NCBI GenBank assembly: GCA_043807255.1
Contig: JAZDGD010000007.1
Coordinates: 17,069 to 81,068 of the forward strand
Length of the DNA: 64,000 bases
Source: Patescibacteria group bacterium
GTDB taxonomy: Bacteria > Patescibacteriota > Minisyncoccia > RBG-13-40-8-A
Reading direction: 5' to 3'
Part shown: piece after piece, positions 238-39,607 of the stretch
Numbering within the stretch: the first letter of the stretch is position 1
Layout of the letters: the number at the start of each line of letters is the position of its first letter
Notes under the pieces: model-generated
What the model saw: the letters and a program-made list of their open reading frames with translations, nothing else
The model's database searches: none
Told to the model about the DNA's origin: nothing
Translations under genes and position numbers: made by a program

Positions 238-1821
238 ATGCGACCAATAATTCTAACGATTTTAGACGGCTGGGGAATCGGCGAACCAGAACAAACCAAC
301 CCAATTTATCGGGCAAAAATTTCTAATCTTAAAAAAATTGAACAATTATATCCTTTTTGTTCCTTGCAAGCGTCTGGAGGAGCAATTGGTTTGCCATGGA
401 AAGAAGCAGGGAATTCAGAAGTTGGCCACCTAACCATTGGTAGCGGAAGAACAATTTATCAATATTTACCTAGAATTTCTATGGATATTGAAAATGAAAC
501 ATTTTTCACTAACCCAGCATTTTTAAAAACAATCGATCATGTCAAAAAATATAATTCTACCCTACATTTAATAGGATTAATTTCCAGCGGGAATGTGCAT
601 TCTTACCTGGAACATGTTTATGCCCTACTAGAACTAGCGAGAAGGAATAATATTGATAATTTACGACTTCATCTTTTTACTGATGGCAAAGATGCTCCAT
701 TAAAAGAAGGAATCAAAATTATTTCTATTCTTGAACAAAAATTAAAAAATCCAAACTGGAAAATTGCTTCCATTGTCGGCAGAAATTATGCTATGGACAG
801 AAACCATAATTGGGACAGGACCGAAACTGCTTACAATTTAATTGTTAATGGCGCTGGAGAAAAAACCTTTAATCCACTCGAAAGAATAAGAGAATATTAT
901 GACCAAGACATTACAGATACCTACATTAAACCGATCGTAATCATAGATGATAATCAAAATCCGATTGGTATTGTAAAAAACAATGATGCGATTATTTCTT
1001 GGGACTTTAGAGAAGATAGTGCCCGACAATTAACTGAAGCATTTGTTAAAAAAGATTTTAATAAATTCGAAAGAAAATTAATTGAAAATTTATTTTTTTG
1101 CACAATGACTGAATACGAAAAAGATTTGCCAATTGCAATTGCCTATCCGCCAATGAAAATTATTAATCATTTAACGGAGATCCTAAATCAATACAATAAA
1201 AAAATACTAAAAGTTGCTGAAACGGAAAAATATGCCCATGTTACATATTTTTTCAATGGCAATCAAGAAAATTTATTTCCCAATGAAACAAGAAAATTAA
1301 TTGCTTCTAATATTGTTACGCATTACGACGAAACACCAGAAATGCAATCAGAAAAAATTACCGAAACCATTATTGAGGGGCTTAAAGAAAATTATGATTT
1401 AATTGTTGCAAATTATTCCAATGCCGATATGATTGGCCATACAGGAAATTTAAAGGCTGGGATTAAGGCAGTGGAAGCAATTGATAAGGCGTTAAAACCA
1501 TTAATCAAATTGGCAGAAAAAGGAGAATGCGTTTTAATAATCACCGCTGACCACGGAAATATTGAACAAATGGTAAATCTTCATACTGGCGAACCGAAAA
1601 CTGAACACACATTAAATCCGGTGCCATTTTATTTGGTGGGCAAAGAATTTAAAAAAGTGCAGGCGCCACGCCCGACTTCGCAAGACGAAGTCGTTGCGGG
1701 CGGGGGCTGGGGGATGCCCCAGGGCATGCTTTCTGATATTGCGCCAACAATTCTCGAATTAATGCAAATCCCTCAACCATCAGAAATGACGGGAAAAAGT
1801 TTATTGAGTGTTTTAAAATAA
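238..1821 (+). CDS. gpmI: 2,3-bisphosphoglycerate-independent phosphoglycerate mutase. Carries an in-frame GC-rich palindromic insertion near the C-terminus (about 1660-1735)
   Basis: ILDGWG and NSEVGH motifs are present and the protein is collinear with iPGM over 527 aa. The C-terminal segment QAPRPTSQDEVVAGGGWGMPQG is encoded by a GC-rich palindromic stretch absent from E. coli GpmI. Confidence 0.9.
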   Translation: MRPIILTILDGWGIGEPEQTNPIYRAKISNLKKIEQLYPFCSLQASGGAIGLPWKEAGNSEVGHLTIGSGRTIYQYLPRISMDIENETFFTNPAFLKTIDHVKKYNSTLHLIGLISSGNVHSYLEHVYALLELARRNNIDNLRLHLFTDGKDAPLKEGIKIISILEQKLKNPNWKIASIVGRNYAMDRNHNWDRTETAYNLIVNGAGEKTFNPLERIREYYDQDITDTYIKPIVIIDDNQNPIGIVKNNDAIISWDFREDSARQLTEAFVKKDFNKFERKLIENLFFCTMTEYEKDLPIAIAYPPMKIINHLTEILNQYNKKILKVAETEKYAHVTYFFNGNQENLFPNETRKLIASNIVTHYDETPEMQSEKITETIIEGLKENYDLIVANYSNADMIGHTGNLKAGIKAVEAIDKALKPLIKLAEKGECVLIITADHGNIEQMVNLHTGEPKTEHTLNPVPFYLVGKEFKKVQAPRPTSQDEVVAGGGWGMPQGMLSDIAPTILELMQIPQPSEMTGKSLLSVLK

Positions 1822-2583: not shown

Positions 2584-3171
2584 CTATTTCCGTTTATCAA
2601 TTATCGAATCGATTAAACCGTACTCTTTCGCTTCTTCGGATGACATATAATAATCACGGTCGCTGTCTTTTTCGATTTTATCTATTTTCTGACCAGTGTG
2701 TTTGGCAATGATTTTATTTAAGCGTTGCTTGGTTTTCATAATTTGTTTTGCAGAAATCTCAATATCTGATGCACGCCCCTCAACACCACTAACTGCGACC
2801 TGATGAATCATTACTTCTGAATTTGGCAAAGCAAATCTTTTTCCTTTTTTGCCGGCAGTTAAAACCACTGCTGCACCCGAGGCTGCTAAACCAATACAAA
2901 CTGTTGAAATATCACATTTCACAAATTGCATTGTGTCATAAATTGCCATAGTTGCCGTAACGCTTCCTCCAGGACTATTAATGTAAATCAAAATATCTCT
3001 CTTTGGGTCTTGGTTTTCCAAAAACAATAATTGTGCAATAACTGCATTTGCCGTATCGTCATCAATTGGACCGCCCAAAAAAATAATTCTGTCTTTTAAT
3101 AATCTTGAATATATGTCGTAGGCTCTCTCACCGTTTTGTGATTTTTCTATGACCGTTGGTATTAAATTCAT
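2584..3171 (-). CDS. clpP: ATP-dependent Clp protease proteolytic subunit
   Basis: Full-length match to the ClpP family ([15 protein letters not shown]). Confidence 0.92.
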
Positions 3172-4124
3172 AAAATTTCTGCTTCGCGCTCAATGAGCTC
3201 AAAGACTTTTTCATTAATAATTACACCTTCAGTATATTCTTTTAAAGCTGCCAAATCAATAGTTTTTTTAACTTTTTCCGCGTCTGGATAGCGCATTAAT
3301 TCTTGATTCATTTTTTCTTCAATCTCTTCAGTTGTAGGAATTATTTCTTCTTTGTCGGCGATTGCTTTAATGCATAATCCGATTTTTGCCCTTTTTTCTG
3401 CTTGCACCCTCCAACTGCTTTTTAACTCATCTAACGTTGATTTAATTTGCATTAAATAAGTTTCAAACTCTAATCCGAATTGAGTAATACTTAATTTAAA
3501 TTCATTAATCATATTTTCTAATTCCGTATCAACTAATTCTTTTGGTACTTCGATTTTAGAATCATTTGCAACTTGTTCAATTAATTCAATCCTTACCCTT
3601 TGCTTATTCATTAATTCCTTTTCTTGTTTTAAACCATCAATAACGCTTTTTTTAAATTCTTCTAAAGATTTAAACTTGCCCATAGATATTGCAAATTCAT
3701 CGTTCAATTCTGGAACTTGTCTTTCTTGAACAAGAATCATCTTTGCTTTAAAATCCAAGCCCTTGCCAGCAACCCTTTTGTCTGTCCAATCATCAGGAAC
3801 TTTTAAGGAAAATTCTTTTTCGTCTCCGGCTTTCATCCCTTCTAATTCTTTTTCAAATCCCGGTAAAAATTGTCCCTCACCTAAAATCAAAGGATGGTTT
3901 TTACTTTCACCGTTTTCAACCTTAACTCCACCGCACCTCACTTCGAAATCAATTTCAATGCGATTTCCTTTTTCTGCCGGCTTATTTATGGTTACGGTTT
4001 TTGCCCGAGAATTTTGAATATACTTTAAAGCACTTTCAATTTCTTTTTCTTCAACTTTCGAATCTTTTTTAGTTGCTTTAAGTTTTCTATAATTTGCCAA
4101 TTCGATTTTTATTTCATTAGTCAT
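3168..4124 (-). CDS. tig: trigger factor lacking the N-terminal ribosome-binding domain (FKBP-type PPIase plus C-terminal domain only)
   Basis: Collinear with E. coli Tig from about residue 115 onward (IDFEVR, [13 protein letters not shown], [16 protein letters not shown]). The start overlaps the nusA stop (ATGA), so there is no room for an N-terminal domain. Confidence 0.75.
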
Positions 4125-5800
4125 TTTATTTCTATTTCCTGAATTAATTTTTTAGTTGCCGGAAAAGTTAATTTTTCCATCGCTTCTTCTTTGGTCGCCC
4201 ATTCATATTTATCATGTTCAATAATTTCCTGTTTTAAAGAAATTATTTGCTCCATGTCGGCTTTAACCAAAAACGTATCCGCAATAACATAATTAATTCC
4301 ATCCGCTTGCCATTCTTCTTTCTTCCCTAGTTTTTTAATTACTTTAAATTTTTTAATTTGAGTTTCTTCTGCAATGCCTCTCTTTATCGTTTTTAATGGC
4401 GTTTCTCCCGGCTCAACGGTTTCTTTTAAAAATTCCCAACCATTCCATCTTAAAATTCTGTGAAGAATCAAAAAATACGGTTTATCATCTTTAACGTCGT
4501 ATATAATAGCTCTATACTTTTTTATTCCATCCCCGCCCCCGCCAACATCTGATGAAGTTGTGGCGGGTGGCGGGCCCGCCTGAATGCCCTCTGGGCTTTC
4601 GGCGAGCTTGTCGGCTTCTATCATTTTTTCACTCTTAACATCTATTTTCCAGCCCGTTAGTTTTGCGGCCAATCTTACGTTCTGTCCACGTTGTCCAATT
4701 GCTAAAGAAATTTGATCTTCGGGGACAATTACTGTTGCGCTTCTGTCTTTTTCTTCAGTTTTCACGCTAATAATTTTAGCAGGCGACAATGCATTGGCGA
4801 TATATTTCTCCATATTTTCATTCCACTCAATGATGTCAATTTTCTCTCCACCCAATTCAGCAATCACTGTTTGTACCCTGCTTCCTTTTTGTCCAACACA
4901 AGAACCAACTGGATCAACCCCTTGCTCTTCTGTAAAAACTGCAATCTTTGTTCTTGAGCCAGGCTCTCGAGCGATGGATTTTATTTGCACCGTTCCCGTT
5001 GAAATTTCTGGAACCTCAATAGAAAATAATCTGCTCACTAATTTTGGATAAGCGCGAGACAAAACAATATCAGCACCTTTTGAAGATTTTTCAACTTTCA
5101 AAATATAAACTCTCAAACGTTGACCGATAAAAAATCTTTCCCCGGGGATTTGCTCTTCGGCGTATAAAATTCCTGATGCCTTACCGATGTCCATAAAAAT
5201 ATTTCTGCCTTCAATCCTTTGTACTATCGCGCTCACGACTTCACCTTCTTTGTCTTTATACTCCGCAAACACAACCTCTCTTTCGGCTTCTCTTAATCTT
5301 TGAATAATAACTTGTTTTGCGGTTTGGGCAGCGATTCTTCCGAAATCGGTATGAGCCTCGAGTTTAGTTTGGATTTCATCTCCTGGCTTTGACCCTTTTT
5401 TAATTTTTTGTGCGTCATCAACCATCACATGTTTGAAGGGATTGAAACGAACTTTCTTGTTGCCTTCTGCATCAATTTCTTCGTCGTCCTCAAACTCTTC
5501 CCCGCCCCCACCAACATCTGATGAAGTTGTGGCGGGTGGCGGGCCCGCCTGAATGCCCTCTGGGCTTTCGGCGGGTTCTTCCTTTAACATACTTTCATCC
5601 ACAACCAAAAATACCTGGAAAACTTTTATTTCTCCAGTATTTAAATCGAACTTGACCTTAATATTCTGACCTTTCTTGCCATAGTCCTTCTTGTATGCAG
5701 CGGCAATCGCCATCTCAAGGGTTTCAATAATTTGTTCTTGAGAAATGCCTTTTTCTTCGGCAATTTGACTCATTGCTGATATAAATTGTTTTTGATCCAT
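4121..5800 (-). CDS. nusA: transcription factor NusA (NTD-S1-KH1-KH2) fused to a C-terminal NUDIX (MutT-like) domain. Contains two in-frame copies of a 76-bp GC-rich repeat
   Basis: Recognised parts are the NusA NTD (ISQIAEEKGIS, FGRIAAQTAKQVIIQRLREAERE), the S1 and two KH domains (IGQRGQNVRLAAKLTGWKIDV). The C-terminal 130 aa carry a Nudix box (WEFLKETVEPGETPLKTIKRGIAEETQI) that aligns position by position with the MutT box [30 protein letters not shown]. The peptide AESPEGIQAGPPPATTSSDVGGGG occurs twice. Confidence 0.85.
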   Translation of the reverse strand: MDQKQFISAMSQIAEEKGISQEQIIETLEMAIAAAYKKDYGKKGQNIKVKFDLNTGEIKVFQVFLVVDESMLKEEPAESPEGIQAGPPPATTSSDVGGGGEEFEDDEEIDAEGNKKVRFNPFKHVMVDDAQKIKKGSKPGDEIQTKLEAHTDFGRIAAQTAKQVIIQRLREAEREVVFAEYKDKEGEVVSAIVQRIEGRNIFMDIGKASGILYAEEQIPGERFFIGQRLRVYILKVEKSSKGADIVLSRAYPKLVSRLFSIEVPEISTGTVQIKSIAREPGSRTKIAVFTEEQGVDPVGSCVGQKGSRVQTVIAELGGEKIDIIEWNENMEKYIANALSPAKIISVKTEEKDRSATVIVPEDQISLAIGQRGQNVRLAAKLTGWKIDVKSEKMIEADKLAESPEGIQAGPPPATTSSDVGGGGDGIKKYRAIIYDVKDDKPYFLILHRILRWNGWEFLKETVEPGETPLKTIKRGIAEETQIKKFKVIKKLGKKEEWQADGINYVIADTFLVKADMEQIISLKQEIIEHDKYEWATKEEAMEKLTFPATKKLIQEIEIK

Positions 5801-5855
5801 AAATTTATTTAATGAAAGGCCCGACGAATGTCGGACCGTAAATGATTAAGAATTA

Positions 5856-5884
5856 ATTTTATGATATTAAAATTCGGATGTCAA
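5856..5884 (-). promoter_or_regulatory. sigma70-like promoter for nusA (TTGACA-17-TAAAAT on the minus strand), followed by a 5'-UTR hairpin (5821-5845)
   Basis: The minus strand reads GGTTGACATCCGAATTTTAATATCATAAAAT. No SD is found before the ATG at 5800. Confidence 0.5.
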
Positions 5885-5904
5885 CCCTTCGACTTCGCTC
5901 AGGG

Positions 5905-14118: not shown

Positions 14119-14298
14119 ATTTTTTTATTAATTTAATAAAATCTGGTGCTTGCACCGCGAAGCTCTGAGGTTTTCCGAAGAGCGAAGTGGTGGACTTAGG
14201 CAGAATCCCCGCCTGCAACGCCTTGCGTAGCAATGGCGGGCAGGGAACTCGCCGTCTCAGCAACCTGCCTACCGGCAGGCAGGCTGCCGTCTTGTTAT

Positions 14299-14369
14299 TG
14301 GACTTAGCGGGAATCGAACCCACGTTTCGTCAATGCGAATGACGCGTATTACCACTATACTATAAGCCC
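14299..14369 (-). tRNA. tRNA-Ala (anticodon CGC), no encoded CCA
   Basis: A cloverleaf was derived by hand. The acceptor stem is GGGCTTA/TAAGTCC with the G3:U70 Ala identity pair, the anticodon loop is TTCGCAT and the T-loop is TTCGATT. Confidence 0.85.
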
Positions 14370-14372
14370 GAA

Positions 14373-15620
14373 TTATTCGTGACGCAAGGCCTCGATTGGA
14401 TTTAATTTTGATGCTTTCTTTGCTGGATAGATGCCGAATACCAGGCCAATCACAGTTGCCACTCCAAGCGAAAGAATAACAGCTCCAATTGGAATTGTAA
14501 ATCCCCAATTTGTTTTCAAAGCACTCGTTAAAACAATTGATGCGCCAAATGAGAACAATGTCCCACCTAAAAATCCAATAATGCCACCAAGCAAAGTTAA
14601 GGTTACTGCCTCAAACAAAAATTGATTCATAATATCTTTATTTCTTGCACCAACTGCCTTTCTTAAACCAATTTCTCTGGTTCTTTCTGTTACCGAAACC
14701 AACATAATATTCATAATTCCAATTCCGCCCACAACCAAAGCAATCGCCGCAATTGAAGACAAAAACGCAGTTAAAATTCCCGTAATCTGCGTTAACATTC
14801 CCGCTGTTTCGACTTGACTCATCGCCTTAAAATCGTCTTTTGCCAAATCTCCTTCAGGATTATAAATATTATGATTTTCTCTCAAAATGATTCTAATACT
14901 ATCTACGACTTGATTAATTAATTTCTCGCTTTTTGCTTTAACCATAATTGCATTCAAATAATCTGTCCCCAGCAAAAGTTTTTGCACGGTCGTATAAGGG
15001 AGATAAGCATAATCATCAAAAGTTTGAAAAACTTGCCCACCCTTTTCCTCTAAAACACCAACCACTTTTAGATTAAGCTTGCCCAATCCAACTGATTGTC
15101 CAATTGGATCATCTTCGCCAAATAAATCGCTTGCTAACTTGTGTCCCAAAACTATAACCCGTGCCATTCCCTTTATGTCGTCTTCATTAATACCGCGACC
15201 ACTAAAAATAGATAAATTACTAATATCAAACGAATCCGCACTTCCTCCCATATAAGTAATTTTTTTATCTTCATTCAAAGAGGAAATTCTTCCTGTTCCA
15301 TAAACCATCATTGCAACTTTTTCCACATTCGGGTCTTTAGCAATGGCGATGGCATCCTTTTCTTTTAAACTTTTTTGACTTAATTGATCTATCGCTTGTT
15401 GAGAAAAAGAACCCTGCGGAGAACCAGGTTCTATAAAAATATTATTTGAACCCATTGAAGAAATTTGCCCAACAATTAAATTTTGTGCACCACCGCCCAA
15501 AGACATCATCAAAATTACCGAACCAACACCAATGATAATGCCCAGCATAGTTAATGTTGACCGCATTTTGTTGGTTTTAAGCGTATTAAATGATATTTTG
15601 ATAGATTCTAATAATTTCAT
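14373..15620 (-). CDS. macB: ABC transporter permease, MacB/FtsX family
   Basis: One N-terminal TM, a large periplasmic domain, three C-terminal TMs and an FtsX-like C-terminus. Confidence 0.8.
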   Translation of the reverse strand: MKLLESIKISFNTLKTNKMRSTLTMLGIIIGVGSVILMMSLGGGAQNLIVGQISSMGSNNIFIEPGSPQGSFSQQAIDQLSQKSLKEKDAIAIAKDPNVEKVAMMVYGTGRISSLNEDKKITYMGGSADSFDISNLSIFSGRGINEDDIKGMARVIVLGHKLASDLFGEDDPIGQSVGLGKLNLKVVGVLEEKGGQVFQTFDDYAYLPYTTVQKLLLGTDYLNAIMVKAKSEKLINQVVDSIRIILRENHNIYNPEGDLAKDDFKAMSQVETAGMLTQITGILTAFLSSIAAIALVVGGIGIMNIMLVSVTERTREIGLRKAVGARNKDIMNQFLFEAVTLTLLGGIIGFLGGTLFSFGASIVLTSALKTNWGFTIPIGAVILSLGVATVIGLVFGIYPAKKASKLNPIEALRHE

Positions 15621-16337: not shown

Positions 16338-17965
16338 TTCCCATTTTTCATATACGTAATTATTTCCTCTCCTTCAATTAAACCACTTATGATTTCAACT
16401 TCTCCCTGACTACCGCGCAATCCAGTAACAACTTCTTTTTCAACAACATTCTTCCCATCTAAAATTCTTACATATTTCTTTCCATTTTTAGAAATTACTG
16501 CTCGTTGTGGAACATTCAAAACGTTATCTTTTTCTTCGGTCTGAATTGTCGCGTCTCCGGACATTCCTGATTTTATCTTCGTGTTATCTCCTTCGAATAA
16601 AATTTTAATCTTATAATAAACAACTCCATCAATTATAGTTTTGCCAGAATCCATTTCTATAATTTGCCCTGAATATGTTTCTTCAGAAATAGCGTCCAGA
16701 GTTATCTCCACTAAATCATCCGGACTTACTTTAGAAATATCGGTTTCTGGTACATCGATTTTAATTTGTAAACCCTTAGGATTAATTAACGTAACAATAA
16801 TTTTTTCCGTATTAATTGTTTCGCCAATTTTTGCGTCTATTTTCGCTACCACGCCATCAAATGGAGCAATAATTGAAGCATCTCTTAGTTTGGTCGTGTA
16901 TTCCGTTAAATTTGCTTTATATCTATCAACATCTGTTTGATAAACAGCAATATCAACTTCACGTGGTTTAGCGATTAATTTATCCAAATCAACTTTTGCC
17001 TTATTGTATGTATTTTCTGCGGAGTTAACATTGATCTGGTTAGTAATTTTTTGATTGGCAATTTCGGTTTGAGAATTGGAAACGTTCAAAAACACGGAAT
17101 TAATTTCTCCTGAATCGGTAGTTATTGTGGTTTTATCAGTCACAGAAACCGTTTGCCCAAACGAAGAATCACTAAAAGATGTTTTAACATAATCCAAGAC
17201 GTCTGACGTCTTTTGTAGCGCAATCCACATCTTAGACAACGCTAAATCAATATTTTCTTGAGTTGGATTATCGGTAGCGATTTCAATTAGTTCTTGTGCT
17301 CCCTTGGTGCTCATGACCCCTAAAAATGCATCTTCTGCTTGGCCCTGTTTCTCAATAAACGTTCGAGAAAAACTATTAACGCCATTAAAATATAATTTTT
17401 CTATATCTTGTAAATCAGTGATTGATTTATTGCATTTGCTAGAAGCACCAATTAAATAAACCAAGCCAGAACCATAGTCTTGATTTAAGTCATTTTCTGC
17501 CTTGTCCCGAGCATCGTCGAGAGATTTTGCTGCATTTTCCAAAACTTGCTCACCAACCTTAATTTCTTCGTTGCTTACACCCGCCAACAACTGATCTAAC
17601 TTTGCCTTTGCTTGATTATAGCTTGCTTGTACTTGTAAGTATTGACTATAAATGGTTCCCGAATCCAAGCTTACTAAATATGCTCCCTTTTTAACATTTT
17701 CGCCAACTTTTGTAAAAATTTTTTCTACTGTGCCTGTTGTTTTAAATTTTAAATCAATTTCATTTGTTGATTCCACTGTTCCGTTGGCAGAAATTTCTTG
17801 AATTACGTTTGATCTGACAACTTTTCCCAATTCATAAACCGGTTTTTTGGGTTTTAAAATTGGAATTAAAATTAAAATAATTATAATTAAAATAACGCCA
17901 AGGATTATCTTGGTTTTTTTGCTCATTGCCTTTATTTTTTGTAGTATTTTTTTAATTGTATTCAT
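16334..17965 (-). CDS. HlyD/MacA-family periplasmic adaptor (membrane fusion protein)
   Basis: An N-terminal TM, a long coiled-coil and beta-barrel/lipoyl-like segments. It is operon-linked to the ABC pair. Confidence 0.7.
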   Translation of the reverse strand: MNTIKKILQKIKAMSKKTKIILGVILIIIILILIPILKPKKPVYELGKVVRSNVIQEISANGTVESTNEIDLKFKTTGTVEKIFTKVGENVKKGAYLVSLDSGTIYSQYLQVQASYNQAKAKLDQLLAGVSNEEIKVGEQVLENAAKSLDDARDKAENDLNQDYGSGLVYLIGASSKCNKSITDLQDIEKLYFNGVNSFSRTFIEKQGQAEDAFLGVMSTKGAQELIEIATDNPTQENIDLALSKMWIALQKTSDVLDYVKTSFSDSSFGQTVSVTDKTTITTDSGEINSVFLNVSNSQTEIANQKITNQINVNSAENTYNKAKVDLDKLIAKPREVDIAVYQTDVDRYKANLTEYTTKLRDASIIAPFDGVVAKIDAKIGETINTEKIIVTLINPKGLQIKIDVPETDISKVSPDDLVEITLDAISEETYSGQIIEMDSGKTIIDGVVYYKIKILFEGDNTKIKSGMSGDATIQTEEKDNVLNVPQRAVISKNGKKYVRILDGKNVVEKEVVTGLRGSQGEVEIISGLIEGEEIITYMKNGK

Positions 17966-18101
17966 AGTACAGGTATTATAAACTATTTTTTAAAAAAAGA
18001 AAAGAGCGAAAATTTGACACAACAATTTATTATGCTAAAATTAAATTAAGAGCGAGATTTAAAAATGAATACGATTTGACTGAAAATTAATTCCAATTCC
18101 C

Positions 18102-19094
18102 ATGCTACTAAAAAGCAGGCGGAATTTTTATTTATCCAAAATTGAAATGCTTACGAACAAATTAACCCCATATTTACAAAAATTAACCAAAACTTGCCCA
18201 GCAATCAAGCGCCAATTTGTTTACTCAAAACAAGAAAATTTATCTAAAAATAAAGATAAAAAATCAACATTTATTGACCCATTAATGGAGGAGAAATATA
18301 CTGTTGTGCGTGGGTTGATTCACAAATATGATAATCGTGCCCTGATCTTATTAACCCTAAATTGTGCTGCCTATTGTAGATTTTGTACTAGACGCAGAAA
18401 GGTTTCTGATATAAAAAATGGCCTATTATCAGACGAGGACATAAACAATATTGTCGCTTACATTAAAAAACATTCTGAGATTAAAGAAATTATCCTTTCC
18501 GGCGGAGATCCGTTAACCGTGCCCGTTCTATTACAAAAATTATTATTAAAACTTTCTAAACTTTCGCAAATCAAAATTATTAGAATTGGTACTCGTTTGC
18601 CTGTCGCTGACCCTCAAAAAATAAATTCAAAACTAATTAATATTTTAAAAGTCATAAAAAATAAAACTGTATACATTTTAATTCATTTTGAGCATCCCAA
18701 AGAAATTACCAAACAAACAATTATTGCTGTAAACAAATTAAAACAAGTTTCAACAATGCTTTTATCTCAATCGGTATTTTTAAAAAATGTTAATGATTCA
18801 TTTGATACGCTCTATGAACTTTTTTCTCAGTTAATTGAAATTGAGGTTAAGCCATACTATTTATATCATTGTGATCCAGTTAAGGGCGCTGAGCATTTTA
18901 TTGTTGATTTCAAAAAAGAAATAAAAATTGTTACCGAATTACGAAAAGAATTAAGTGGATTAGCATTTCCAACATATATTATTGATGCACCCAACGGTGC
19001 AGGCAAAATTCCTGTACCCCTGGAATTCTGGAAATTCGATTCAGACAAATACAAAGATTTTAACGGCAAAATCTTACGAGGTTTAACCTCGTAA
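18102..19094 (+). CDS. KamA-family radical SAM protein (lysine 2,3-aminomutase / EpmB-like)
   Basis: CAAYCRFC (CxxxCxxC) and SGGDPL. The size matches EpmB. Confidence 0.75.
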   Translation: MLLKSRRNFYLSKIEMLTNKLTPYLQKLTKTCPAIKRQFVYSKQENLSKNKDKKSTFIDPLMEEKYTVVRGLIHKYDNRALILLTLNCAAYCRFCTRRRKVSDIKNGLLSDEDINNIVAYIKKHSEIKEIILSGGDPLTVPVLLQKLLLKLSKLSQIKIIRIGTRLPVADPQKINSKLINILKVIKNKTVYILIHFEHPKEITKQTIIAVNKLKQVSTMLLSQSVFLKNVNDSFDTLYELFSQLIEIEVKPYYLYHCDPVKGAEHFIVDFKKEIKIVTELRKELSGLAFPTYIIDAPNGAGKIPVPLEFWKFDSDKYKDFNGKILRGLTS

Positions 19095-19121
19095 GATTTT
19101 GCATTTAAGTTCGAATTCATA

Positions 19122-20870
19122 CTACACTTCTATTATGACCGGCAAGACCATTGGTCTTCTTTTAGTTTTGCTATACAAAAATTGACCGATTTTATCGCGT
19201 AGATTATCTTTAACAAACACCCAATTAATTGGCGCCCCGGGAACAGCGCTGTGTTCAACAATATCTTTAACCTTTTTACGCACTTCGTTTAAGAGCTCTT
19301 TTGATTCTTTCATGTAGATAAACCCGCGAGAAATTATATCTGGACTATTTTTAATTTTACCAGTTTGTCGATCAATTGTAGCAATAATTACAAACATTCC
19401 GTCTTCGGCCATTGTTTGACGATCACGCAATACAACGTGACCGATATCACCAATTCCTAATCCGTCGACAAAAACATAGCTCGTGTCAATTTTTTTACTT
19501 AAAATCTTTGCTGATCCACCATGAAATTCAAGCACCGAGCCATTGTCTAAAACAAAAATTCTGTCTCTCGAAATTCCGATCTGTATTGCCAATTTTGCTG
19601 ATTCCTTCAAAAAATAATGATAAGCATAAACTGGCAAAAAATAATCTGGCCTGATTTGTCTAATAATTTCCTTAATGTTTTCGGCATTAGAATGTCCACT
19701 CATGTGTACGTCCATAATTTCGTTATGCACAACATTGTCACACTGACGATACAAGCCGTCTTTCATTTGTTGAATTGTTCTTTCGTTGCCAGGAATGATT
19801 GATGAAGAAAAGATTATGGTATCATTTTTTTTAATTCTAACAAATCGATGATCACCAGTAATAATTCTCGATAAAACTGCATTGCCCTCTCCTTGCGCGC
19901 CAGTACAAATAATTATAATTTTGTTTTCAGGATGTTTGTTGATTTCATTAATTGGAATAAGCGTTTCTTTGTCTGCTTTAATGTATCCCAGCCCTTGGGC
20001 AATTTCTACGTTCATTTTCATGCTATAACCGTCAAGCGCCACTTTTTTGCCAATTGTTTTGGCATATTCAATAATGTCGCCAATTCTTTTTATTTGAGAA
20101 GAAAAAGTGCCGATAATTACTTTGCCTTGTGCGCCACTAATAAGTTTCTCTAGATTAGCATACATGTCTTTTTCTAAAACCATTTCTTTGTTTGTATCTA
20201 ATGAGCCCAAGCTTTCGAGCATTAAAATTTTCGGTCCTGGCAAAGATGCCAAATGGTTATAGGTGACAGCTTGATGTGTATCAGAATTTTTTTCCATCGT
20301 CCAATCGCCTGGATGAATAATCGTTCCGTCGGGAGTATTAATCACAACGCCGACCGCATCCATAATTGAATGTTCAACATTAAAAAATCCAACCCTAAAC
20401 TTCCCCAACGTTAATCGTTCATCAATTGATTTAATTTTGATAATCTTTAATTGTTTCATTGAATCTTTATCATATTCTTGCATTCTTTTTTCAATTAAAG
20501 CAATTGTTAAATCTCTACCGATAATTGTCGGAAGGCCAAGTTTTTTCAAAAGTAACGGAGCAGCTCCGATATGATCCAAGTGACCATGGCTAAAAATTAC
20601 TCCCTTAATATTTTTTTCCTTGCCTTTCAGATAACTAATATTAGGAATAATGAAATCAATTCCCGGCATATCTTCTTCGGGAAACTGAATTCCCATATCT
20701 AAAATCACAATATCTTCGCCATATTCAAAAACAGTCATATTCCTACCAACTTCTTCCATTCCACCTAAAGGAATAATCCTTAAGGTTGGTTGTTTTGGTT
20801 TCTTTTGCATCTGCGGTCTTTGTATTTGTGGTTTTTGTTTCATTTGTTTGTGTTTAAATTGTTGTTCCAT
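19122..20870 (-). CDS. rnj: ribonuclease J (metallo-beta-lactamase/beta-CASP)
   Basis: IIPLGGMEEVGRNM and HGHLDHIGA. It has a Q/K-rich N-terminal extension. Confidence 0.88.
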   Translation of the reverse strand: MEQQFKHKQMKQKPQIQRPQMQKKPKQPTLRIIPLGGMEEVGRNMTVFEYGEDIVILDMGIQFPEEDMPGIDFIIPNISYLKGKEKNIKGVIFSHGHLDHIGAAPLLLKKLGLPTIIGRDLTIALIEKRMQEYDKDSMKQLKIIKIKSIDERLTLGKFRVGFFNVEHSIMDAVGVVINTPDGTIIHPGDWTMEKNSDTHQAVTYNHLASLPGPKILMLESLGSLDTNKEMVLEKDMYANLEKLISGAQGKVIIGTFSSQIKRIGDIIEYAKTIGKKVALDGYSMKMNVEIAQGLGYIKADKETLIPINEINKHPENKIIIICTGAQGEGNAVLSRIITGDHRFVRIKKNDTIIFSSSIIPGNERTIQQMKDGLYRQCDNVVHNEIMDVHMSGHSNAENIKEIIRQIRPDYFLPVYAYHYFLKESAKLAIQIGISRDRIFVLDNGSVLEFHGGSAKILSKKIDTSYVFVDGLGIGDIGHVVLRDRQTMAEDGMFVIIATIDRQTGKIKNSPDIISRGFIYMKESKELLNEVRKKVKDIVEHSAVPGAPINWVFVKDNLRDKIGQFLYSKTKRRPMVLPVIIEV

Positions 20871-20956
20871 TATATTTTTATACTTTTAAGTTGCTTTTAT
20901 TATATCAATATAATACAATAAAAGAAAGGCTGGAGTAATAAATAATTTAAAAAAAT

Positions 20957-21334
20957 ATGAATATTAGAAAAATATTATCAATAATCATTATTGTGGGTTT
21001 TGCGCTTGTGTTATTATTGGCCGTCATTTCAAAAGAAAGCCCGCAAGAACAAGAACTGATTTCGGGTTTGTTTTTTTATGTTTGTCTGGGGGTTGCGATT
21101 TCGACAGCTTTTTTGGTACTCTCGTTATTGTTCCCTTTTCGCACTGACATTGAAAATCAAAAACCCAAGAGCGTTTTTAGGAAAATTATAATTTTTGTTC
21201 TTGGATTAATATTTACAGTAATAACTGCCATAGCCTCATTTTTTATACTGCTTTTTCTCGGGGCCATTAGTGGCATTTTTAGTATTGGATCAGGCACCTA
21301 TGGCACCCCGATATATAGACCAAAAATAAATTAA
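20957..21334 (+). CDS. small four-TM membrane protein with a Gly/Ser-rich C-terminal tail. It ends 3 nt before the radical SAM gene
   Basis: Hydrophobicity profile; tail GAISGIFSIGSGTYGTPIYRPKIN. Confidence 0.5.
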   Translation: MNIRKILSIIIIVGFALVLLLAVISKESPQEQELISGLFFYVCLGVAISTAFLVLSLLFPFRTDIENQKPKSVFRKIIIFVLGLIFTVITAIASFFILLFLGAISGIFSIGSGTYGTPIYRPKIN

Positions 21335-21337
21335 ACT

Positions 21338-22696
21338 ATGGAAATTATTGATTCCATCGCAGATAAAATTTTGGGTGATTTTAAAAAAGAGATACCTATC
21401 GTGGGGCGATATTCTACGAGAAAAGAAAAGAGAGGGTATGCTCTTTTTTTTAATGACAGCCTAAGAATCGTTTTCCTTAGTGATATGGGTTACTATTTTA
21501 TAAAAGAAATAGATGGAATGAAAAACTGTGATCAAGTAGCAAGAGCTGTTGCAAGTTCATTAAAATTTCCTTATTTGGTTTCTTGTAGGCTGTTGATCAA
21601 ATGTTTAAATCATTTTTCTTCGCTTGAAATTGTTTCGTTGAAAACCACAAAAACCACAAAAGTTAAATTAAAAAATTTAGGAAATTTTATTCCATCAGCG
21701 CCAAACCAAATAGCTATTCTTTTAACAAACGAGTGTAATTTGCGCTGTTCTCATTGTGGCAACGAAAATAGAGATCGAAAAGAAAATGAATTGTCGAAAG
21801 AAGAGTGGTTCAAGATTATAGACGAATGTTCGAAAATTGGCGTGTTTATTTTCAATGTTTCTGGTGGCGAACCATTTATTAGAAAAGATTGGTATGAAGT
21901 ACTGTCCTATGCCCGTTCAAAGAAAATAGAAGTTGCAATTACCAGCAACTCAACGCTTATTAATGAAGATGTAGCAGAAAAATTAAAAGAACTAAAGATT
22001 TTTAATATACATTTGAGTGTAGACGGGGTTGGCGAAATTCATGATCATTTTAGAAATCAAAAAGGTGTCTTTGAGAAAGTAGTTAATGCAATAGATTTAT
22101 TAAAAAAATACAAAATCCCATTCGGCATTACAACGGCGGTTTCAAAGAGAAACTTTAGCGATTTGGACAAATTGGTTGAATTTGTTAGAAGTAATAATAT
22201 CTCCTCTTGGGAAATTTACTCCGCAATACCTCTGGGGTGTATGAATAAATTAGAAGCGTTAAGCCAGTCAGAAACGTTAGAATTTGCAAGAAAGATATCC
22301 GATTTTAGAAAAAATCTAAAGGATACAAAAATTTTTGTTGGCGACAATTTGGGATATTTCGACCAATACAATATGCAAGAAGATTGGAGGGGTTGCAGGG
22401 CGGGAATTAGTATTTGCGCGATTGATTCCGAAGGCAATGTCAAGGGTTGTCCCATACATCCCAATTCTTTAATACAGGGGAATCTTAGAAGCAGAACGTT
22501 AAGCGATATATGGAACGACAAGAAATCATTTGGATATAATCGTAATGCTAAATCGAAACTAAAAGAACACTGTAAAAATTGTCGATTTTCAAAAGTTTGC
22601 CGAGGCGGATGCAAGGCTTCAATGTATTCTCAACACAAGAATTTCGAACACAATGACTACTGTTTAAAGTTCATTGAGGAAAGCAGAACTATTTAA
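21338..22696 (+). CDS. radical SAM/SPASM-domain peptide-modifying enzyme with an N-terminal PqqD-like (RRE-like) extension
   Basis: CNLRCSHC cluster, GGEPF, and a C-terminal Cys-rich SPASM region (CRAGISIC ... CKNCRFSKVCRGGCKA). The N-terminal ~110 aa include YFIKEIDGMKNCDQVARAV, which resembles PqqD. Confidence 0.75.
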   Translation: MEIIDSIADKILGDFKKEIPIVGRYSTRKEKRGYALFFNDSLRIVFLSDMGYYFIKEIDGMKNCDQVARAVASSLKFPYLVSCRLLIKCLNHFSSLEIVSLKTTKTTKVKLKNLGNFIPSAPNQIAILLTNECNLRCSHCGNENRDRKENELSKEEWFKIIDECSKIGVFIFNVSGGEPFIRKDWYEVLSYARSKKIEVAITSNSTLINEDVAEKLKELKIFNIHLSVDGVGEIHDHFRNQKGVFEKVVNAIDLLKKYKIPFGITTAVSKRNFSDLDKLVEFVRSNNISSWEIYSAIPLGCMNKLEALSQSETLEFARKISDFRKNLKDTKIFVGDNLGYFDQYNMQEDWRGCRAGISICAIDSEGNVKGCPIHPNSLIQGNLRSRTLSDIWNDKKSFGYNRNAKSKLKEHCKNCRFSKVCRGGCKASMYSQHKNFEHNDYCLKFIEESRTI

Positions 22697-28812: not shown

Positions 28813-30312
28813 TTATTTTATCCAATATTTTTCACGGATTTTTAGATCTTCTTCTTCCTTTTTTTCTTCGATTTTACCTTTGGCTAATTTGCGAAGAACT
28901 TCTAGGTTTTCTTCGTTTAATTCTAAAACTCTTTTTTCTAAATATTTCTTATTATTGTTCTTCGGCTCTTCAATTACTTCCGCCAACAAAACATCCAAAA
29001 TCGCACCTACTTTTGGACTGGGTTCGATTTTTAACAATTTCATTATATCCGTGCCATTAATTTTCAACATCTTTGCAGAAATCGGATCCTTGGAAATTTT
29101 TTCAATCATATACTCAATTGTTCTTAAACGATAGGGTTTTTCTTTCGGCCTTCCCATTCCCAATCTATCGGCAACTCTTAAATTAATCAAATCAACAATA
29201 TTTTCTTTGCCCACTCTTTTTAATAATCTTCTTGCGCCAGCATCAGTTAATTTTTCTGGGTCGGAAACAAACATATGATTTCTAACCAGCAAAACAACTT
29301 TATCAATAAATTTATTGGAGAATTTTAATCGTTTTAAAATTTTATCGACAAATTTCGCACCAACATAATCGTGATTATAAAAAGTAGAGTCGGGGCCTTC
29401 GCCTTGTTTGGTTTCTGGCTTACCAATATCATGGAATAAGGCCGCAACCTTTACTTCTAAATTAAAATCTTTCTTTGCTGCTTCATCCAACGCCCTTAAA
29501 GAGTGCTCATAAATATCATAAATATGGTGCTTGTTTTGGCTTACGCCAACACCCTTGTCGAGTTCTGGCAAAATGAATTTAAGTAAATTTGTTTGTCGCA
29601 ATAAATCAATTCCATTTGCTGCTTTTTTGGTTTGAAAAATTTTAATTAATTCGTCGTGAATTCTTTCATTGGAAATCATTTGAATTAATTCTGCATTTTT
29701 TTGAATCGCCTTAAAGGTTTTTTCCTCGATCGTAAAATCAAGGGTGCAGGCGAATCTTACCGCTCTTAGCATTCTTAGTGCGTCTTCATCGAATCTTTTA
29801 TTCGCATCGCCAACCGCACGAATTATTTTATTTTTTAAATCTTTCTGTCCATCGAAAAAATCTAATATTCGGACGTCCGATGTCCTACCATTCTTAATGT
29901 CGGGACATCGGACGTCCCCCATTTTTAACGCGAGTGCATTTACCGTAAAATCCCGCCTGGCAAGATCTTCTTCTAACTTTTTAGCAAAAGTTATTTCGTC
30001 AGGATGACGCTTGTCAGAATATTTTCCCTCTAAGCGAAAAGGCGTGATCTCGACAATTTTTAATGTTTCGTCTTTAGAATCAGTAATTACGCTTACTGTG
30101 CCAAATTGATTTTCATAAAAATTTTTAGGGAATAACTTTCTAATTTGTTCCGGTTTAGCATTAGTAGTAATGTCCCAATCGTTGGGCTTAATGTCTCTTC
30201 CTTCGACTTCGCTCAGGACGAGGTCGCGAACACAACCACCAACAGCATAAGCTTCGTAGTCATTCTTAATCAATTTTTCTAATATTAAATTAACTTCCTT
30301 GGGAATTGTCAT
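28813..30312 (-). CDS. cca: CCA-adding tRNA nucleotidyltransferase with an HD domain. Carries two in-frame palindromic-element insertions
   Basis: GGCVRD, RRDFTVNALA and HDIGKP. The inserted peptides are SEVEGRD and KMGDVRCPDIKNGRTSDVR. Confidence 0.88.
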   Translation of the reverse strand: MTIPKEVNLILEKLIKNDYEAYAVGGCVRDLVLSEVEGRDIKPNDWDITTNAKPEQIRKLFPKNFYENQFGTVSVITDSKDETLKIVEITPFRLEGKYSDKRHPDEITFAKKLEEDLARRDFTVNALALKMGDVRCPDIKNGRTSDVRILDFFDGQKDLKNKIIRAVGDANKRFDEDALRMLRAVRFACTLDFTIEEKTFKAIQKNAELIQMISNERIHDELIKIFQTKKAANGIDLLRQTNLLKFILPELDKGVGVSQNKHHIYDIYEHSLRALDEAAKKDFNLEVKVAALFHDIGKPETKQGEGPDSTFYNHDYVGAKFVDKILKRLKFSNKFIDKVVLLVRNHMFVSDPEKLTDAGARRLLKRVGKENIVDLINLRVADRLGMGRPKEKPYRLRTIEYMIEKISKDPISAKMLKINGTDIMKLLKIEPSPKVGAILDVLLAEVIEEPKNNNKKYLEKRVLELNEENLEVLRKLAKGKIEEKKEEEDLKIREKYWIK

Positions 30313-30373: not shown

Positions 30374-30401
30374 TTGACATCGGTCTTCTTAATGGTATAC
30401 T
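30374..30401 (+). promoter_or_regulatory. sigma70 promoter TTGACA-16-TATACT, preceded 9 nt upstream by AGTTATCCACAG (30353-30364)
   Basis: Read directly from the sequence. Confidence 0.6.
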
Positions 30402-30407
30402 GATAGT

Positions 30408-30486
30408 GCGGTCGCAAGATTGCCCTGCTCGCGGATGCGAGTCCGAGATTTAAACTTCGCCTTTTAAAGGCGAGGTTTTGTTTTTA
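30408..30486 (+). ncRNA. candidate small RNA of about 75 nt: promoter, internal hairpins, then an intrinsic terminator (30455-30485)
   Basis: The terminator CTTCGCCTTTTAAAGGCGAGGTTTTGTTTTT is plus-oriented. No ORF lies between the promoter and the terminator. Confidence 0.4.
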
Positions 30487-37432: not shown

Positions 37433-39607
37433 ATGAATCGTAGTCTGAAGTTTGCAGATCAAGGCGAAAAATATATGGATGTGAAAACATTTAAAACAGA
37501 GATCGAAGGAAAAGAACTCTCTGTCGAGTTGGGTAGATTGGCTCAACAAACCAATGGCTCGGCCTTGGTAACGTATGGACAAACCACAGTTTTAGCAACT
37601 GCGGTTCTTTCCAATAAAAAAAGCGAAAAAACCTATTTTCCCCTAACCGTTGATTACGAAGAAAAATTTTACGCAGCGGGAAAAATCAAGGGCAGTCGTT
37701 TCATTAAAAGGGAAGGAAGGCCATCAGATGAAGCGATTTTAACTGGCCGAGTTATTGATAGATCAATCCGACCTCTTTTTAATCAAAAACTAAGAAACGA
37801 TTTACAGGTCGTTTTAACCGTCTTATCATTCGACGGTGAAAATGATCCAGTACTACCAGCGCTAATTGGCGCTTCGGTTGCCCTGTCTATTTCTGACATA
37901 CCATTTAATGGACCAATTGCAGGAATTTCTGCTGGTCAAGATGAAAAAGGAGAATGGATTGTTACTTCAACCTTAAGCGCAAAAGCAAAAACTGGTTCAG
38001 AAATTTTTGCAGCCGGAATCGAAAAAGACAACGATATTCTTTTAAATATGCTTGAAGGACAAGGAATACAGGTTCCAGAAGAGCAAATGCTTGAAGGAAT
38101 CGATGTTGTGAGAAAATATATTAAAAAATTAATTGATTTTCAAAAGGATATCATTAAAGAGGTTAAACCAGTCAAATTAGAATTAACAATCCCAGAAATT
38201 GATGCTGATCTTAAAAAATTAATCGATAAATTTCTTGAAGATAAAATAGAAACAGCAATTTATCATAAAGAAAAACAAGCCAGAGTAAAGCAATTAGAAG
38301 ATATTAATTTGGGAATTGAGGTCTTGATCGAAGAAAAATATCCCGAAGAAACAAAGGGAAAAACCGCAATGGTTATGGATTATCTTGAAGAAAAAATTGA
38401 TGAAATCACTCACATCAACATTCTTAAAAACGACAAGAGACCGGATGGTAGAAAAATGGACGAATTAAGAAAATTAAGCGCCGAAGTAGCAATTCTTCCT
38501 AGATTACACGGTTCGGGATTGTTCCAAAGAGGAGAAACACAAGTATTCTCTGCTGTTACTCTTGGCTCTCCTGGCTCGGAACAAATTTTTGACCAAATGG
38601 AGATTCAAGGCAAAAAAGGATTTATGCATGACTACAACTTTCCCCCATTCTCTGTGGGAGAGGTCGGACGAGTCGGAAATCCTGGCAGACGGGACATTGG
38701 CCATGGTGCATTAGCGGAAAAAGCGTTAATGGCGATTGTCCCTTCAAGAGAAGAATTTCCTTATACGATTAGAGTTGTATCTGAAGTCCTGTCTTCAAAT
38801 GGATCGTCTTCAATGGCATCTGTTTGCGGTTCGACATTAGCATTAATGGATGCCGGTGTTCCAATTAAAGAAAAGGCAGCTGGTATTGCCATGGGGTTAA
38901 TGATGGACCCTTCGACGGGCTCAGGGCAAGCTTTAAAATATAAAGTTTTAACCGATATTCAGGGACCAGAAGATCATTATGGCGACATGGACCTGAAGAT
39001 TGCTGGAACAAAAAATGGAATTAACGCACTTCAAATGGATATTAAAATTGACGGGATACCAATGAATATCTTGAAGGATGCATTTCAACAATCAAAAAGG
39101 GCACGTCTAGAAATTCTTGATGTAATCACAAAAACGATCGACGTACCTCGTGCAGAATTATCAACTTTTGCTCCTCGCGTTTATTCGATAAAAATCAATC
39201 CTGCCAAAATAGGATTAGTGATTGGTTCTGGCGGAAAAACAATTAATGAACTTTCCACAGAAACCGGAGCGACCATTGAAATCGAAGAAGATGGAACAAT
39301 CTTTGTTACCTGCAATGATGCTGATGGCGCAAAGCGAGCAATCAACAGGATTGAATCAATGACCAGGGAAGCAAAAGTAGATGAAGAATTTGAAGGAACG
39401 GTTGTTAAGGTTATGGAGTTCGGCGCATTTGTAGAATTGTTTCCCGGACAAGATGGATTGCTCCACATTTCCGAACTTTCGAACAAAAGAGTTGATAGGG
39501 TTGAAGACATAGTTAGACAAGGCGATATTGTTCATGTTAAAGTTAAGAAAGTGGACGATAGTGGTAAAATTAGTCTTGGTTTAATAAAAATTATTTCAAA
39601 AAAATAA
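37433..39607 (+). CDS. pnp: polynucleotide phosphorylase. The start may be the downstream Met at 37476. Carries an in-frame insertion DPSTGSGQALK encoded by a repeat element (38908-38926)
   Basis: Two RNase PH domains, KH and S1. VLTDIQGPEDHYGDMD. Confidence 0.9.
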   Translation: MNRSLKFADQGEKYMDVKTFKTEIEGKELSVELGRLAQQTNGSALVTYGQTTVLATAVLSNKKSEKTYFPLTVDYEEKFYAAGKIKGSRFIKREGRPSDEAILTGRVIDRSIRPLFNQKLRNDLQVVLTVLSFDGENDPVLPALIGASVALSISDIPFNGPIAGISAGQDEKGEWIVTSTLSAKAKTGSEIFAAGIEKDNDILLNMLEGQGIQVPEEQMLEGIDVVRKYIKKLIDFQKDIIKEVKPVKLELTIPEIDADLKKLIDKFLEDKIETAIYHKEKQARVKQLEDINLGIEVLIEEKYPEETKGKTAMVMDYLEEKIDEITHINILKNDKRPDGRKMDELRKLSAEVAILPRLHGSGLFQRGETQVFSAVTLGSPGSEQIFDQMEIQGKKGFMHDYNFPPFSVGEVGRVGNPGRRDIGHGALAEKALMAIVPSREEFPYTIRVVSEVLSSNGSSSMASVCGSTLALMDAGVPIKEKAAGIAMGLMMDPSTGSGQALKYKVLTDIQGPEDHYGDMDLKIAGTKNGINALQMDIKIDGIPMNILKDAFQQSKRARLEILDVITKTIDVPRAELSTFAPRVYSIKINPAKIGLVIGSGGKTINELSTETGATIEIEEDGTIFVTCNDADGAKRAINRIESMTREAKVDEEFEGTVVKVMEFGAFVELFPGQDGLLHISELSNKRVDRVEDIVRQGDIVHVKVKKVDDSGKISLGLIKIISKK

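Follow-up and report, generated by a model that had tools for sequence, protein, structure and literature searches.

Three copies of a hairpin unit in the window

The window, by which we mean the entire 64,000-nucleotide stretch of patescibacterial DNA analyzed here, is AT-rich (~35% GC) and carries three copies of a short hairpin unit, one of them intergenic and the other two embedded in the genes cca and pnp. The copies, their host and neighboring genes and the associated features are listed below, with the anatomy of each copy written as stem / loop / stem.

238-1821, plus strand: gpmI
4121-5800, minus strand: nusA, fused to a C-terminal NUDIX domain; downstream of copy 1
5856-5884, minus strand: nusA promoter-like site, with TTGACA at 5884-5879, a 17-nt spacer and TAAAAT at 5861-5856
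5885-5904, plus strand: copy 1 of the hairpin unit, CCCTTCGACTTCGCTCAGGG; intergenic; CCC-T / TCGACTTCGCTC / A-GGG, with a 4-bp stem and a 12-nt loop
5905-6282, minus strand: UPF0102/YraN-like ORF, the TAG stop codon of which (5907-5905) abuts copy 1
28813-30312, minus strand: cca, CCA-adding enzyme / poly(A) polymerase family; hosts copy 2
30190-30216, minus strand: insert in cca, nine codons (LSEVEGRDI) for three in relatives; net gain of 6 amino acids (18 nt)
30199-30218, plus strand: copy 2, TCCTTCGACTTCGCTCAGGA; within cca, whose coding strand is the minus strand; TCC-T / TCGACTTCGCTC / A-GGA
37433-39607, plus strand: pnp, polynucleotide phosphorylase; hosts copy 3
38908-38926, plus strand: copy 3, CCCTTCGACGGGCTCAGGG; within pnp, whose coding strand is the plus strand; CCC-T / TCGACGGGCTC / A-GGG, then the tail CAAGC
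38909-38935, plus strand: insert in pnp, nine codons (PSTGSGQAL) for two (GE) in relatives; net gain of 7 amino acids

The gene calls (nusA, cca, pnp, gpmI and the UPF0102/YraN-like ORF) agree with those of an earlier note on this DNA, which had also recognized the motif at these three sites, and the three-copy observation is confirmed. All three copies contain the conserved loop TCGAC-N3-4-CTC, the middle of which comprises 4 nt in copy 1 and 3 nt in copy 3. The flanking triplets are CCC/GGG in copies 1 and 3 and TCC/GGA in copy 2; the apparent mismatches between copies 1 and 2, which share an identical inner 18-mer and differ at both end bases, thus amount to one compensatory pair. On the 3′ side the pnp copy continues into the tail CAAGC and the cca copy into CGAGG, while copy 1 has no such tail because the stop codon directly adjoins it. 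The window holds only solo copies, two of the three being intragenic, and their folds are weak (−3.4 to −6.7 kcal/mol, z = −0.1 to −1.4).

No match to the motif arose in dinucleotide-preserving shuffles of the window, and none of the three copies is expected by chance. A covariance model of the hairpin family (R1), run on the window, finds exactly these three with E-values on the order of 1e-7 (2e-7 to 7e-7), scoring copy 1 at 31.8 bits (E = 1.9e-7), copy 2 at 29.9 bits (E = 7.3e-7) and copy 3 at 30.0 bits (E = 6.7e-7). The best remaining matches in the window have E-values of 0.29 (14803-14826, plus strand) and 0.48 (17503-17526, minus strand), leaving a gap of six orders of magnitude. One of these marginal matches lies within an FtsX/MacB permease gene and one within an HlyD-like gene; either decay of former copies or chance could account for them.

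The earlier suggestion that related cores also occur in the flank of tRNA-Ala and in the gpmI terminator finds no support. At the former, R1 scores 7.9 bits with an E-value of 6.9, which is at noise level, and the ACTTCGCTC core there is one extra 9-mer match, of which ~0.2 are expected by chance. The gpmI terminator (1868-1888) has no R1 match and is a strong hairpin of another kind (−15 kcal/mol, z = −4.1).

Anatomy and covariation of the hairpin family

The unit is a short stem of 4 bp (NNN-T / A-N′N′N′) that closes a conserved loop of 11–12 nt. When the flanking triplets were left free in the scan (TTCGACARGCTCA NNN CGAAC), the triplets on either side of the conserved 13-mer were fully complementary in 145 of 165 arms and comprised at least 10 different pairs, the most frequent being CCC/GGG (48), GGC/GCC (26), TCC/GGA (23), TGG/CCA (20) and TGC/GCA (19). 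Pairing in the 4-bp stem reaches 91% over 90 distinct arms, and both partners have changed in three of the four pairs, with a covariation score that was reached by none of 500 shuffles; as a control, partner columns that were slid relative to each other paired at only 18–48%. The search patterns fixed most of the loop positions, such that the conservation of the loop is in part by construction, but this does not apply to the stem covariation or to the non-random composition of the free positions.

In the viral-contig loci the unit is mostly intergenic, with 295 arms occurring solo and 109 in inverted pairs whose members lie 0–60 nt apart. Tandem arrays are seen as well, with periods of 27 nt in a locus from the Sphingobacteriales (L397, 1263-1964) and 24 nt in one from an alphaproteobacterium (L333, 358-423), both of which are multiples of three. 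That the inverted pairs form one long hairpin was considered and rejected: the variable loop middles do not covary between the arms and can differ even in length. Since the loop middles of the arms are unmatched and the two stems within a pair usually differ, the single arm has to be seen as the unit.

Wobble pairs read on the TTCGAC strand comprise 60 A.C as against 22 G.T, an asymmetry which hints that the TGAGC strand may be the folded one. Relative to the upstream gene, the unit shows no orientation bias (16 versus 19). By sequence inspection, five of its six reading frames are open. In its 5′ half (TTCGAC) the loop is similar to a T-loop, and R1 cross-matches the T-arm and acceptor end of a tRNA in one related locus (L187, 17075-17098, GGGGTTCGACTCCCC).

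Distribution across bacteria

Outside the window the unit is widespread. Scanning viral and prophage contigs with the pattern CCTTCGAC-N3-4-CTCAGGG recovered it from at least 120 contigs, the GC content of which ranges from 31 to 73%. Among the matches listed, the free positions are far from random, with AAG or AGG filling the gap in 77 of 137 sites, and the 3′ flank is mostly CGAACGG, CAGGC, TGACA or CAAGC. The exact 18-mer of copies 1 and 2, which has TTCG as its gap, is found at no fewer than 120 loci in GTDB species genomes from many phyla, as compared to a chance expectation of ~17 over the whole GTDB collection by our own arithmetic, and is identical to arms in four further loci (L028, L233, L235 and L261). 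Its carriers include Acidobacteriota, Bacteroidota, Alpha-, Beta- and Gammaproteobacteria, Chloroflexota, Cyanobacteria, Planctomycetota, Verrucomicrobiota, Spirochaetota, Myxococcota and Gemmatimonadota, as well as Saccharibacteria, Curtissbacteria and other Patescibacteria, and isolate chromosomes are among them. A two-arm version is present, unannotated, between co-oriented genes in Moraxella osloensis, Sphingobium and Comamonas plasmids. Thus, the motif is a genuine repeat family, as the earlier note had supposed, and the existence of further copies is contrary to the outcome that would have refuted the note; however, the family is pan-bacterial with a covarying stem rather than private to one genome. 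No match was obtained in 5,426 E. coli genomes or in GenBank phage genomes.

The 148 ORFs adjacent to copies include no consistent neighboring gene, and transposases are not enriched among their top families; this is a sample in which a single-copy RAYT would rarely be caught. ORFs lying between neighboring units in two loci (L092 and L218) code for Mu-like phage structural proteins or have no Pfam match, no mobilizing gene being recognized among them. Rfam has no family for the unit: at gathering thresholds the window matches only tRNAs, and E-value scans of 14 unit-carrying loci returned only weak matches to RF02901 and unrelated families, a Flavo-1 match being located elsewhere in its locus, away from the unit. 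A literature search with the motif DNA, the translated peptides and the topic found no description of the unit, and a study of GTAG-/CGTC-tagged REPs (PMC3733652) contains none of the four DNA strings taken from the two strands of the motif.

Copy 1 at the YraN–NusA junction

Copy 1 makes up the entire gap between the stop codon of the YraN-like ORF and the −35 hexamer of the nusA promoter-like site, with no spare bases on either side. It therefore touches the TTGACA directly, as had been claimed. The promoter-like site fits the sigma-70 consensus at 11 of 12 positions and is conserved in relatives with or without an upstream element. At the site occupied by copy 1, one relative (L132) has merely the three nucleotides ATC and another (L130) an unrelated GC-rich palindrome, CCCCAGCCGTGGCGGGG.

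The fusion of NusA to a NUDIX domain in the window is unusual; the match of distant relatives to the NusA query stops at about residue 390, which suggests that they may lack the NUDIX part. The 5′ UTR of nusA contains a separate hairpin (5818-5837, minus strand; GGTCCGAC-ATTC-GTCGGGCC) with a fold energy of −14.9 kcal/mol (z = −5.1), which is retained in relatives L128 to L133 with altered stem and loop bases and is possibly a leader or attenuator.

In-frame copies in the CCA-adding enzyme and PNPase

Copies 2 and 3 are translated in frame, respectively as LSEVEG and PSTGSGQ, and alignment of the orthologs that the earlier note had singled out for comparison reveals an in-frame insertion in both genes. 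In the CCA-adding enzyme the insertion falls between the GGxVRD motif and the DWD (DxD) motif. Here, relatives L125 and L316 have LIMGQKPKDWD and LLLEEKPKDWD as against LVLSEVEGRDIKPNDWD in the window, with MGQ of the former and LEE of the latter placed opposite LSEVEGRDI, bearing out the view that the 18-mer adds coding sequence to cca. The cca gene of a further relative (L122) carries a different hairpin insert at the same loop, namely EHPPAGG from TCCGCCAGCTGGCGGA.

In PNPase the insertion lies in a turn of the second RNase PH domain. Among 120 aligned homologs, most have a 3-residue turn (GEK, GDK and the like) where the window protein has the 10 residues PSTGSGQALK; the two closest relatives (89–91% identity) have no insert, and the solved PNPase 5yjj shows a 7-residue gap exactly at this point, in keeping with the earlier claim of additional residues. 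The window PNPase is itself 100% identical to one from a MAG recorded at NCBI as a Patescibacteria group bacterium. The DNA of the site is GAT GGT GAG AAA in empty alleles and GAC CCT TCG AC[G/A] [G/A]GC TCA GGG CAA G.. ... AAA in filled ones, a net gain of 21 nt. With the tail, the inserts in cca and pnp are 27 nt long, as compared to 19–20 nt for the unit itself. The same codon in relatives is occupied by CCCTTCGAC[AAG/GGG/AGG]CTCAGGGCAAG, with the copy in L125 having its T-A stem pair replaced by C-G. The filled alleles all share their boundaries exactly, with the same two codons replaced in each. Other relatives have other inserts at this site: two (L314 and L316) carry CTGAGCGAAGCGAAATCCGC.TCTGGCGGA, and one (L315) has an AT-rich insert of 11 residues.

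Site polymorphism in patescibacterial relatives

With R1 we searched 0.89 Mb of related DNA surrounding homologs of nusA and pnp and obtained nine matches at E < 0.05. The pnp insert accounts for four of these and the C-terminal tails of NusA for two (L181 and L129); the others are a match close to the end of a different ORF (L151), a pair between genes (L145) and the tRNA T-arm cross-match mentioned above. The density is low, with about five non-pnp copies in the 0.89 Mb, or ~1 per 170 kb, as against 3 in the 64-kb window. The identical 20-mer also occurs in other lineages of the CPR, where an ATP-dependent DNA ligase (TLRLRSGQ) and a ComM/Mg-chelatase-like ATPase (HPSTSLRA) read it in different frames.

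Each of the three window sites is polymorphic among relatives, being either empty or occupied by another GC-rich hairpin. In a PNPase tree, which is a simple neighbor-joining tree of one protein, the PSTGSGQ allele is polyphyletic, appearing in at least six separate places, each beside an empty allele, and an EAKSASGG allele is likewise scattered. The identity of the 150-nt flanks of the pnp site tracks whole-gene relatedness: the flanks in the window are closest to those of the empty alleles in L121 and L123 (86%), and those of L124 are closest to L314 (85%), which has a different insert. As the flanks follow whole-gene relatedness, spread of the insert by long-tract recombination was rejected. 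Two probable sources are left, namely repeated gain at one and the same codon or conversion over very short tracts. The boundaries between filled and empty alleles show no target-site duplication at any of the three sites; instead, a few resident bases are replaced.

A few kilobases downstream of pnp, relative L122 has phage-like genes (16604-21780; capsid, primase, D5_N and large terminase), which possibly represent a prophage or a phage-like island of a Portnoybacteria genome.

Comparison with known repeat families

The closest general parallel is with the REP/BIME/REPIN elements mobilized by RAYT Y1 transposases. Like these, the unit is a short imperfect palindrome of 20–35 nt that is dispersed, non-coding and mostly intergenic, often just 3′ of a gene, and occurs solo, in spaced inverted pairs and in arrays; the extragenic, multi-copy layout with solo and inverted-pair arms is indeed seen in other bacteria. 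REPs within genes are on record, and REP/REPIN elements are defined by a GTAG or CGTC tag at one end of the palindrome (PMC3733652). This tag is absent from the unit and its conserved flanks. Moreover, the REP stem is long and GC-rich, whereas that of the unit is 4 bp with a large conserved loop; REP families are lineage-specific, whereas the loop of the unit is common to many phyla; and neither a RAYT nor another transposase was found near the unit among the 148 adjacent ORFs, with a low copy number in the lineage.

Rickettsia palindromic elements (RPEs), which are 100–150 bp long, are restricted to Rickettsia and are translated as surface insertions in essential proteins, offer a parallel for the coding copies: they too are GC-richer palindromic selfish repeats that sit in frame in essential genes of a small AT-rich genome. 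The unit shares with them the in-frame insertion into conserved protein-coding genes but not the long stable hairpin of 100–150 bp, being ~20–27 nt in size, pan-bacterial and without sequence relationship to them. The theme of in-frame palindromic elements has also been covered elsewhere (PMC1779305).

Like MITEs and mitochondrial GC clusters, the unit is a small, non-autonomous, GC-rich hairpin in an AT-rich genome. Such GC-rich hairpin invaders of AT-rich genomes are sometimes found in coding sequence. In contrast to MITEs (reviewed in PMC10969869), the unit has no terminal inverted repeats around an internal segment and no target-site duplication, and it is far shorter.

Within Rfam, the consensus of RF02901 (AaHKsRNA41, Aggregatibacter sRNA 41), a species-specific sRNA model of 187 nt, has upstream of a terminator the Aggregatibacter form of the unit, arranged as an inverted pair (CUGAgCUUGcCGAAG ... 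gUUCGgCAAGcUCAg). Two-arm units elsewhere score 17–33 bits with this model as against a gathering score of 97, and the window has no match to it at the gathering threshold. Accordingly, the unit is not a classical REP/REPIN, RPE, MITE, intrinsic terminator or instance of RF02901. Likenesses to the hammerhead core, integron attC sites, Tn3 terminal repeats and the 5′ end of tmRNA were also considered and dropped as too partial.

Origin of the copies

We favor, with moderate confidence, the interpretation that the three copies are relics of a REP-like, non-autonomous selfish hairpin repeat that survive only where they are harmless. Under this proposal, a very widespread non-coding hairpin unit, elsewhere mostly intergenic as solo arms, inverted pairs and tandem arrays, would have entered an AT-rich, gene-dense Patescibacteria (Portnoybacteria-like) genome in which copies might persist only at harmless sites. 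Copy 1 would then be a gap filler between a stop codon and the nusA −35 hexamer, and copies 2 and 3 would occupy tolerant surface turns of the CCA-adding enzyme and PNPase, where open frames would let them be simply translated into 6–7 extra residues. We posit that the element is or was mobile selfish DNA acting as a single-stranded hairpin, that the window copies are likely to be passive relics rather than regulators of nusA, cca or pnp, and that the re-use of the same sites might reflect selection for harmless positions or some site targeting. The established features of the family speak for this proposal: three copies where none is expected by chance, the specificity of R1, the covarying stem, the occurrence across bacterial phyla and the polymorphism of each of the three sites, together with the presence of the 20-mer in unrelated genes and frames (DNA ligase, ComM-like ATPase and NusA tails). 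Against it stand the lack of a transposase among the 148 ORFs and of a target-site duplication or terminal tag at the three sites, and the low copy number in the lineage. Further, known HUH/Y1 transposases recognize hairpins for which a stem of 4 bp would be unusually short, the identical boundaries of all filled pnp alleles are odd for independent transposition, and the near-identity of the loop across phyla exceeds that of ordinary REP families and could reflect a conserved host function.

These last points invite a bolder proposal, which we put forward only tentatively: the unit may be an undescribed, pan-bacterial structured mini-element that is recognized in single-stranded form by conserved machinery and repeatedly enters or replaces identical positions, as it would have done in five or more lineages at one codon of an essential gene. 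If so, it would imply site-directed insertion or short-patch replacement without a linked transposase. Overall, a functional role or a novel mechanism is a minority prospect, kept alive by the invariance of the loop, the short stem, the identical pnp boundaries and the absence of a linked enzyme.

In its functional form, which we regard as doubtful, the unit would be a structured RNA or ssDNA motif of the host; a widely conserved factor would bind its loop, and selection rather than mobility would keep the copies in place. The near-invariance of the loop across phyla with GC contents of 31–73%, combined with a covarying stem, speaks for this; the excess of A.C over G.T wobbles suggests a single folded strand, one Aggregatibacter instance lies within a detected sRNA (RF02901), and the 5′ half of the loop resembles the tRNA T-loop, with R1 cross-matching a T-arm. 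However, a maintained motif sits poorly with the want of an orientation preference or a consistent neighboring gene, with sites that are present, absent or swapped among close relatives, with its occurrence in any reading frame inside unrelated enzymes, and with its absence from E. coli.

A more local role for copy 1, as a terminator or insulator of the upstream gene or as an upstream promoter element of nusA, is improbable, its exact position between stop codon and −35 hexamer notwithstanding. Its stem is weak (4–5 bp, −6.7 kcal/mol, z = −1.4); a terminator scan made no call here, no U-tract is present and TTGACA follows in place of a run of T, such that it does not qualify as an intrinsic terminator (a GC-rich stem of ≥5 bp followed by a U-tract). 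L132 keeps the promoter with just 3 nt in place of copy 1, L130 has its unrelated palindrome there, and the motif is coding in two other genes. More generally, the lack of an orientation bias and the weak hairpins without a U-tract argue against a cis-regulatory RNA role, and nothing indicates that copy 1 regulates nusA.

Alternatively, the coding copies might be kept for their peptides, with PSTGSGQ and LSEVEG acting as functional loop extensions and the likeness at the DNA level being secondary. The retention of the pnp insert in several lineages with an intact reading frame fits this notion, but cca and pnp read opposite strands of the same DNA, other CPR genes read it in other frames, one copy is non-coding, the closest relatives have no inserts and solved PNPases have no such loop; we consider it very improbable. 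Even less credible is a DNA-uptake or recombination signal sequence of the lineage: although uptake sequences can occur inside genes and as inverted pairs, the density of the unit (3 per 64 kb here and ~1 per 170 kb in relatives) is far too low, its distribution is pan-bacterial rather than lineage-specific, and stem covariation is not expected of a word recognized in double-stranded DNA. Most carriers are metagenome-assembled genomes, yet chance similarity or an assembly or contamination artifact has a negligible probability given the absence of matches in shuffles, the in-frame copies in conserved genes, the diverged versions in independent relatives and the presence of the motif in isolate chromosomes and plasmids.

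Implications for annotation and genome dynamics

If our interpretation of the family holds, a 20-nt hairpin common to Acidobacteria, Bacteroidota, Proteobacteria, Chloroflexota, Cyanobacteria, Planctomycetota, Patescibacteria and others would rank among the most widely distributed small bacterial repeats. Peptides such as PFDKLRANG, PSTSSGQA and LSEVEG, which we take to be derived from the unit, probably account for many spurious “hypothetical proteins”. In real CPR proteins the unit adds odd loop insertions, and its recognition would improve annotation. The re-use of sites by different GC-rich hairpins and the polyphyletic pnp insert would also offer a testable setting for the movement of elements in tiny genomes with almost no intergenic space.

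Other hairpins and GC-rich elements

In relatives, the same protein loops also house a second family of small hairpins, TCCGCC-NNN(N)-GGCGGA, which is translated as the peptides PPAGG and SASGG. It is found in cca of L122 (~2806-4257), in pnp of L314 and L316, and in L360 (365-583); in the latter, it is joined to the unit studied here to form a composite repeat of ~55 nt that is present twice.

The window also contains larger GC-rich segments. Two 99%-identical copies of a 75-nt GC-rich element (4530-4604 and 5499-5573) both lie within the nusA-NUDIX ORF, one of them in the N-terminal NusA domain, which exceeds the Pfam profile in length by ~50 residues; they look like larger, RPE-like in-frame elements. 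A further GC-rich island of ~75 nt is located in gpmI (1655-1729). Upstream of cca, a GC-rich segment (30380-30470) follows a TTGACA and has no Rfam match at gathering thresholds. Finally, a GC-rich block of ~95 nt (14199-14292), palindromic in appearance and with no Rfam match, adjoins tRNA-Ala (14299-14369, minus strand).
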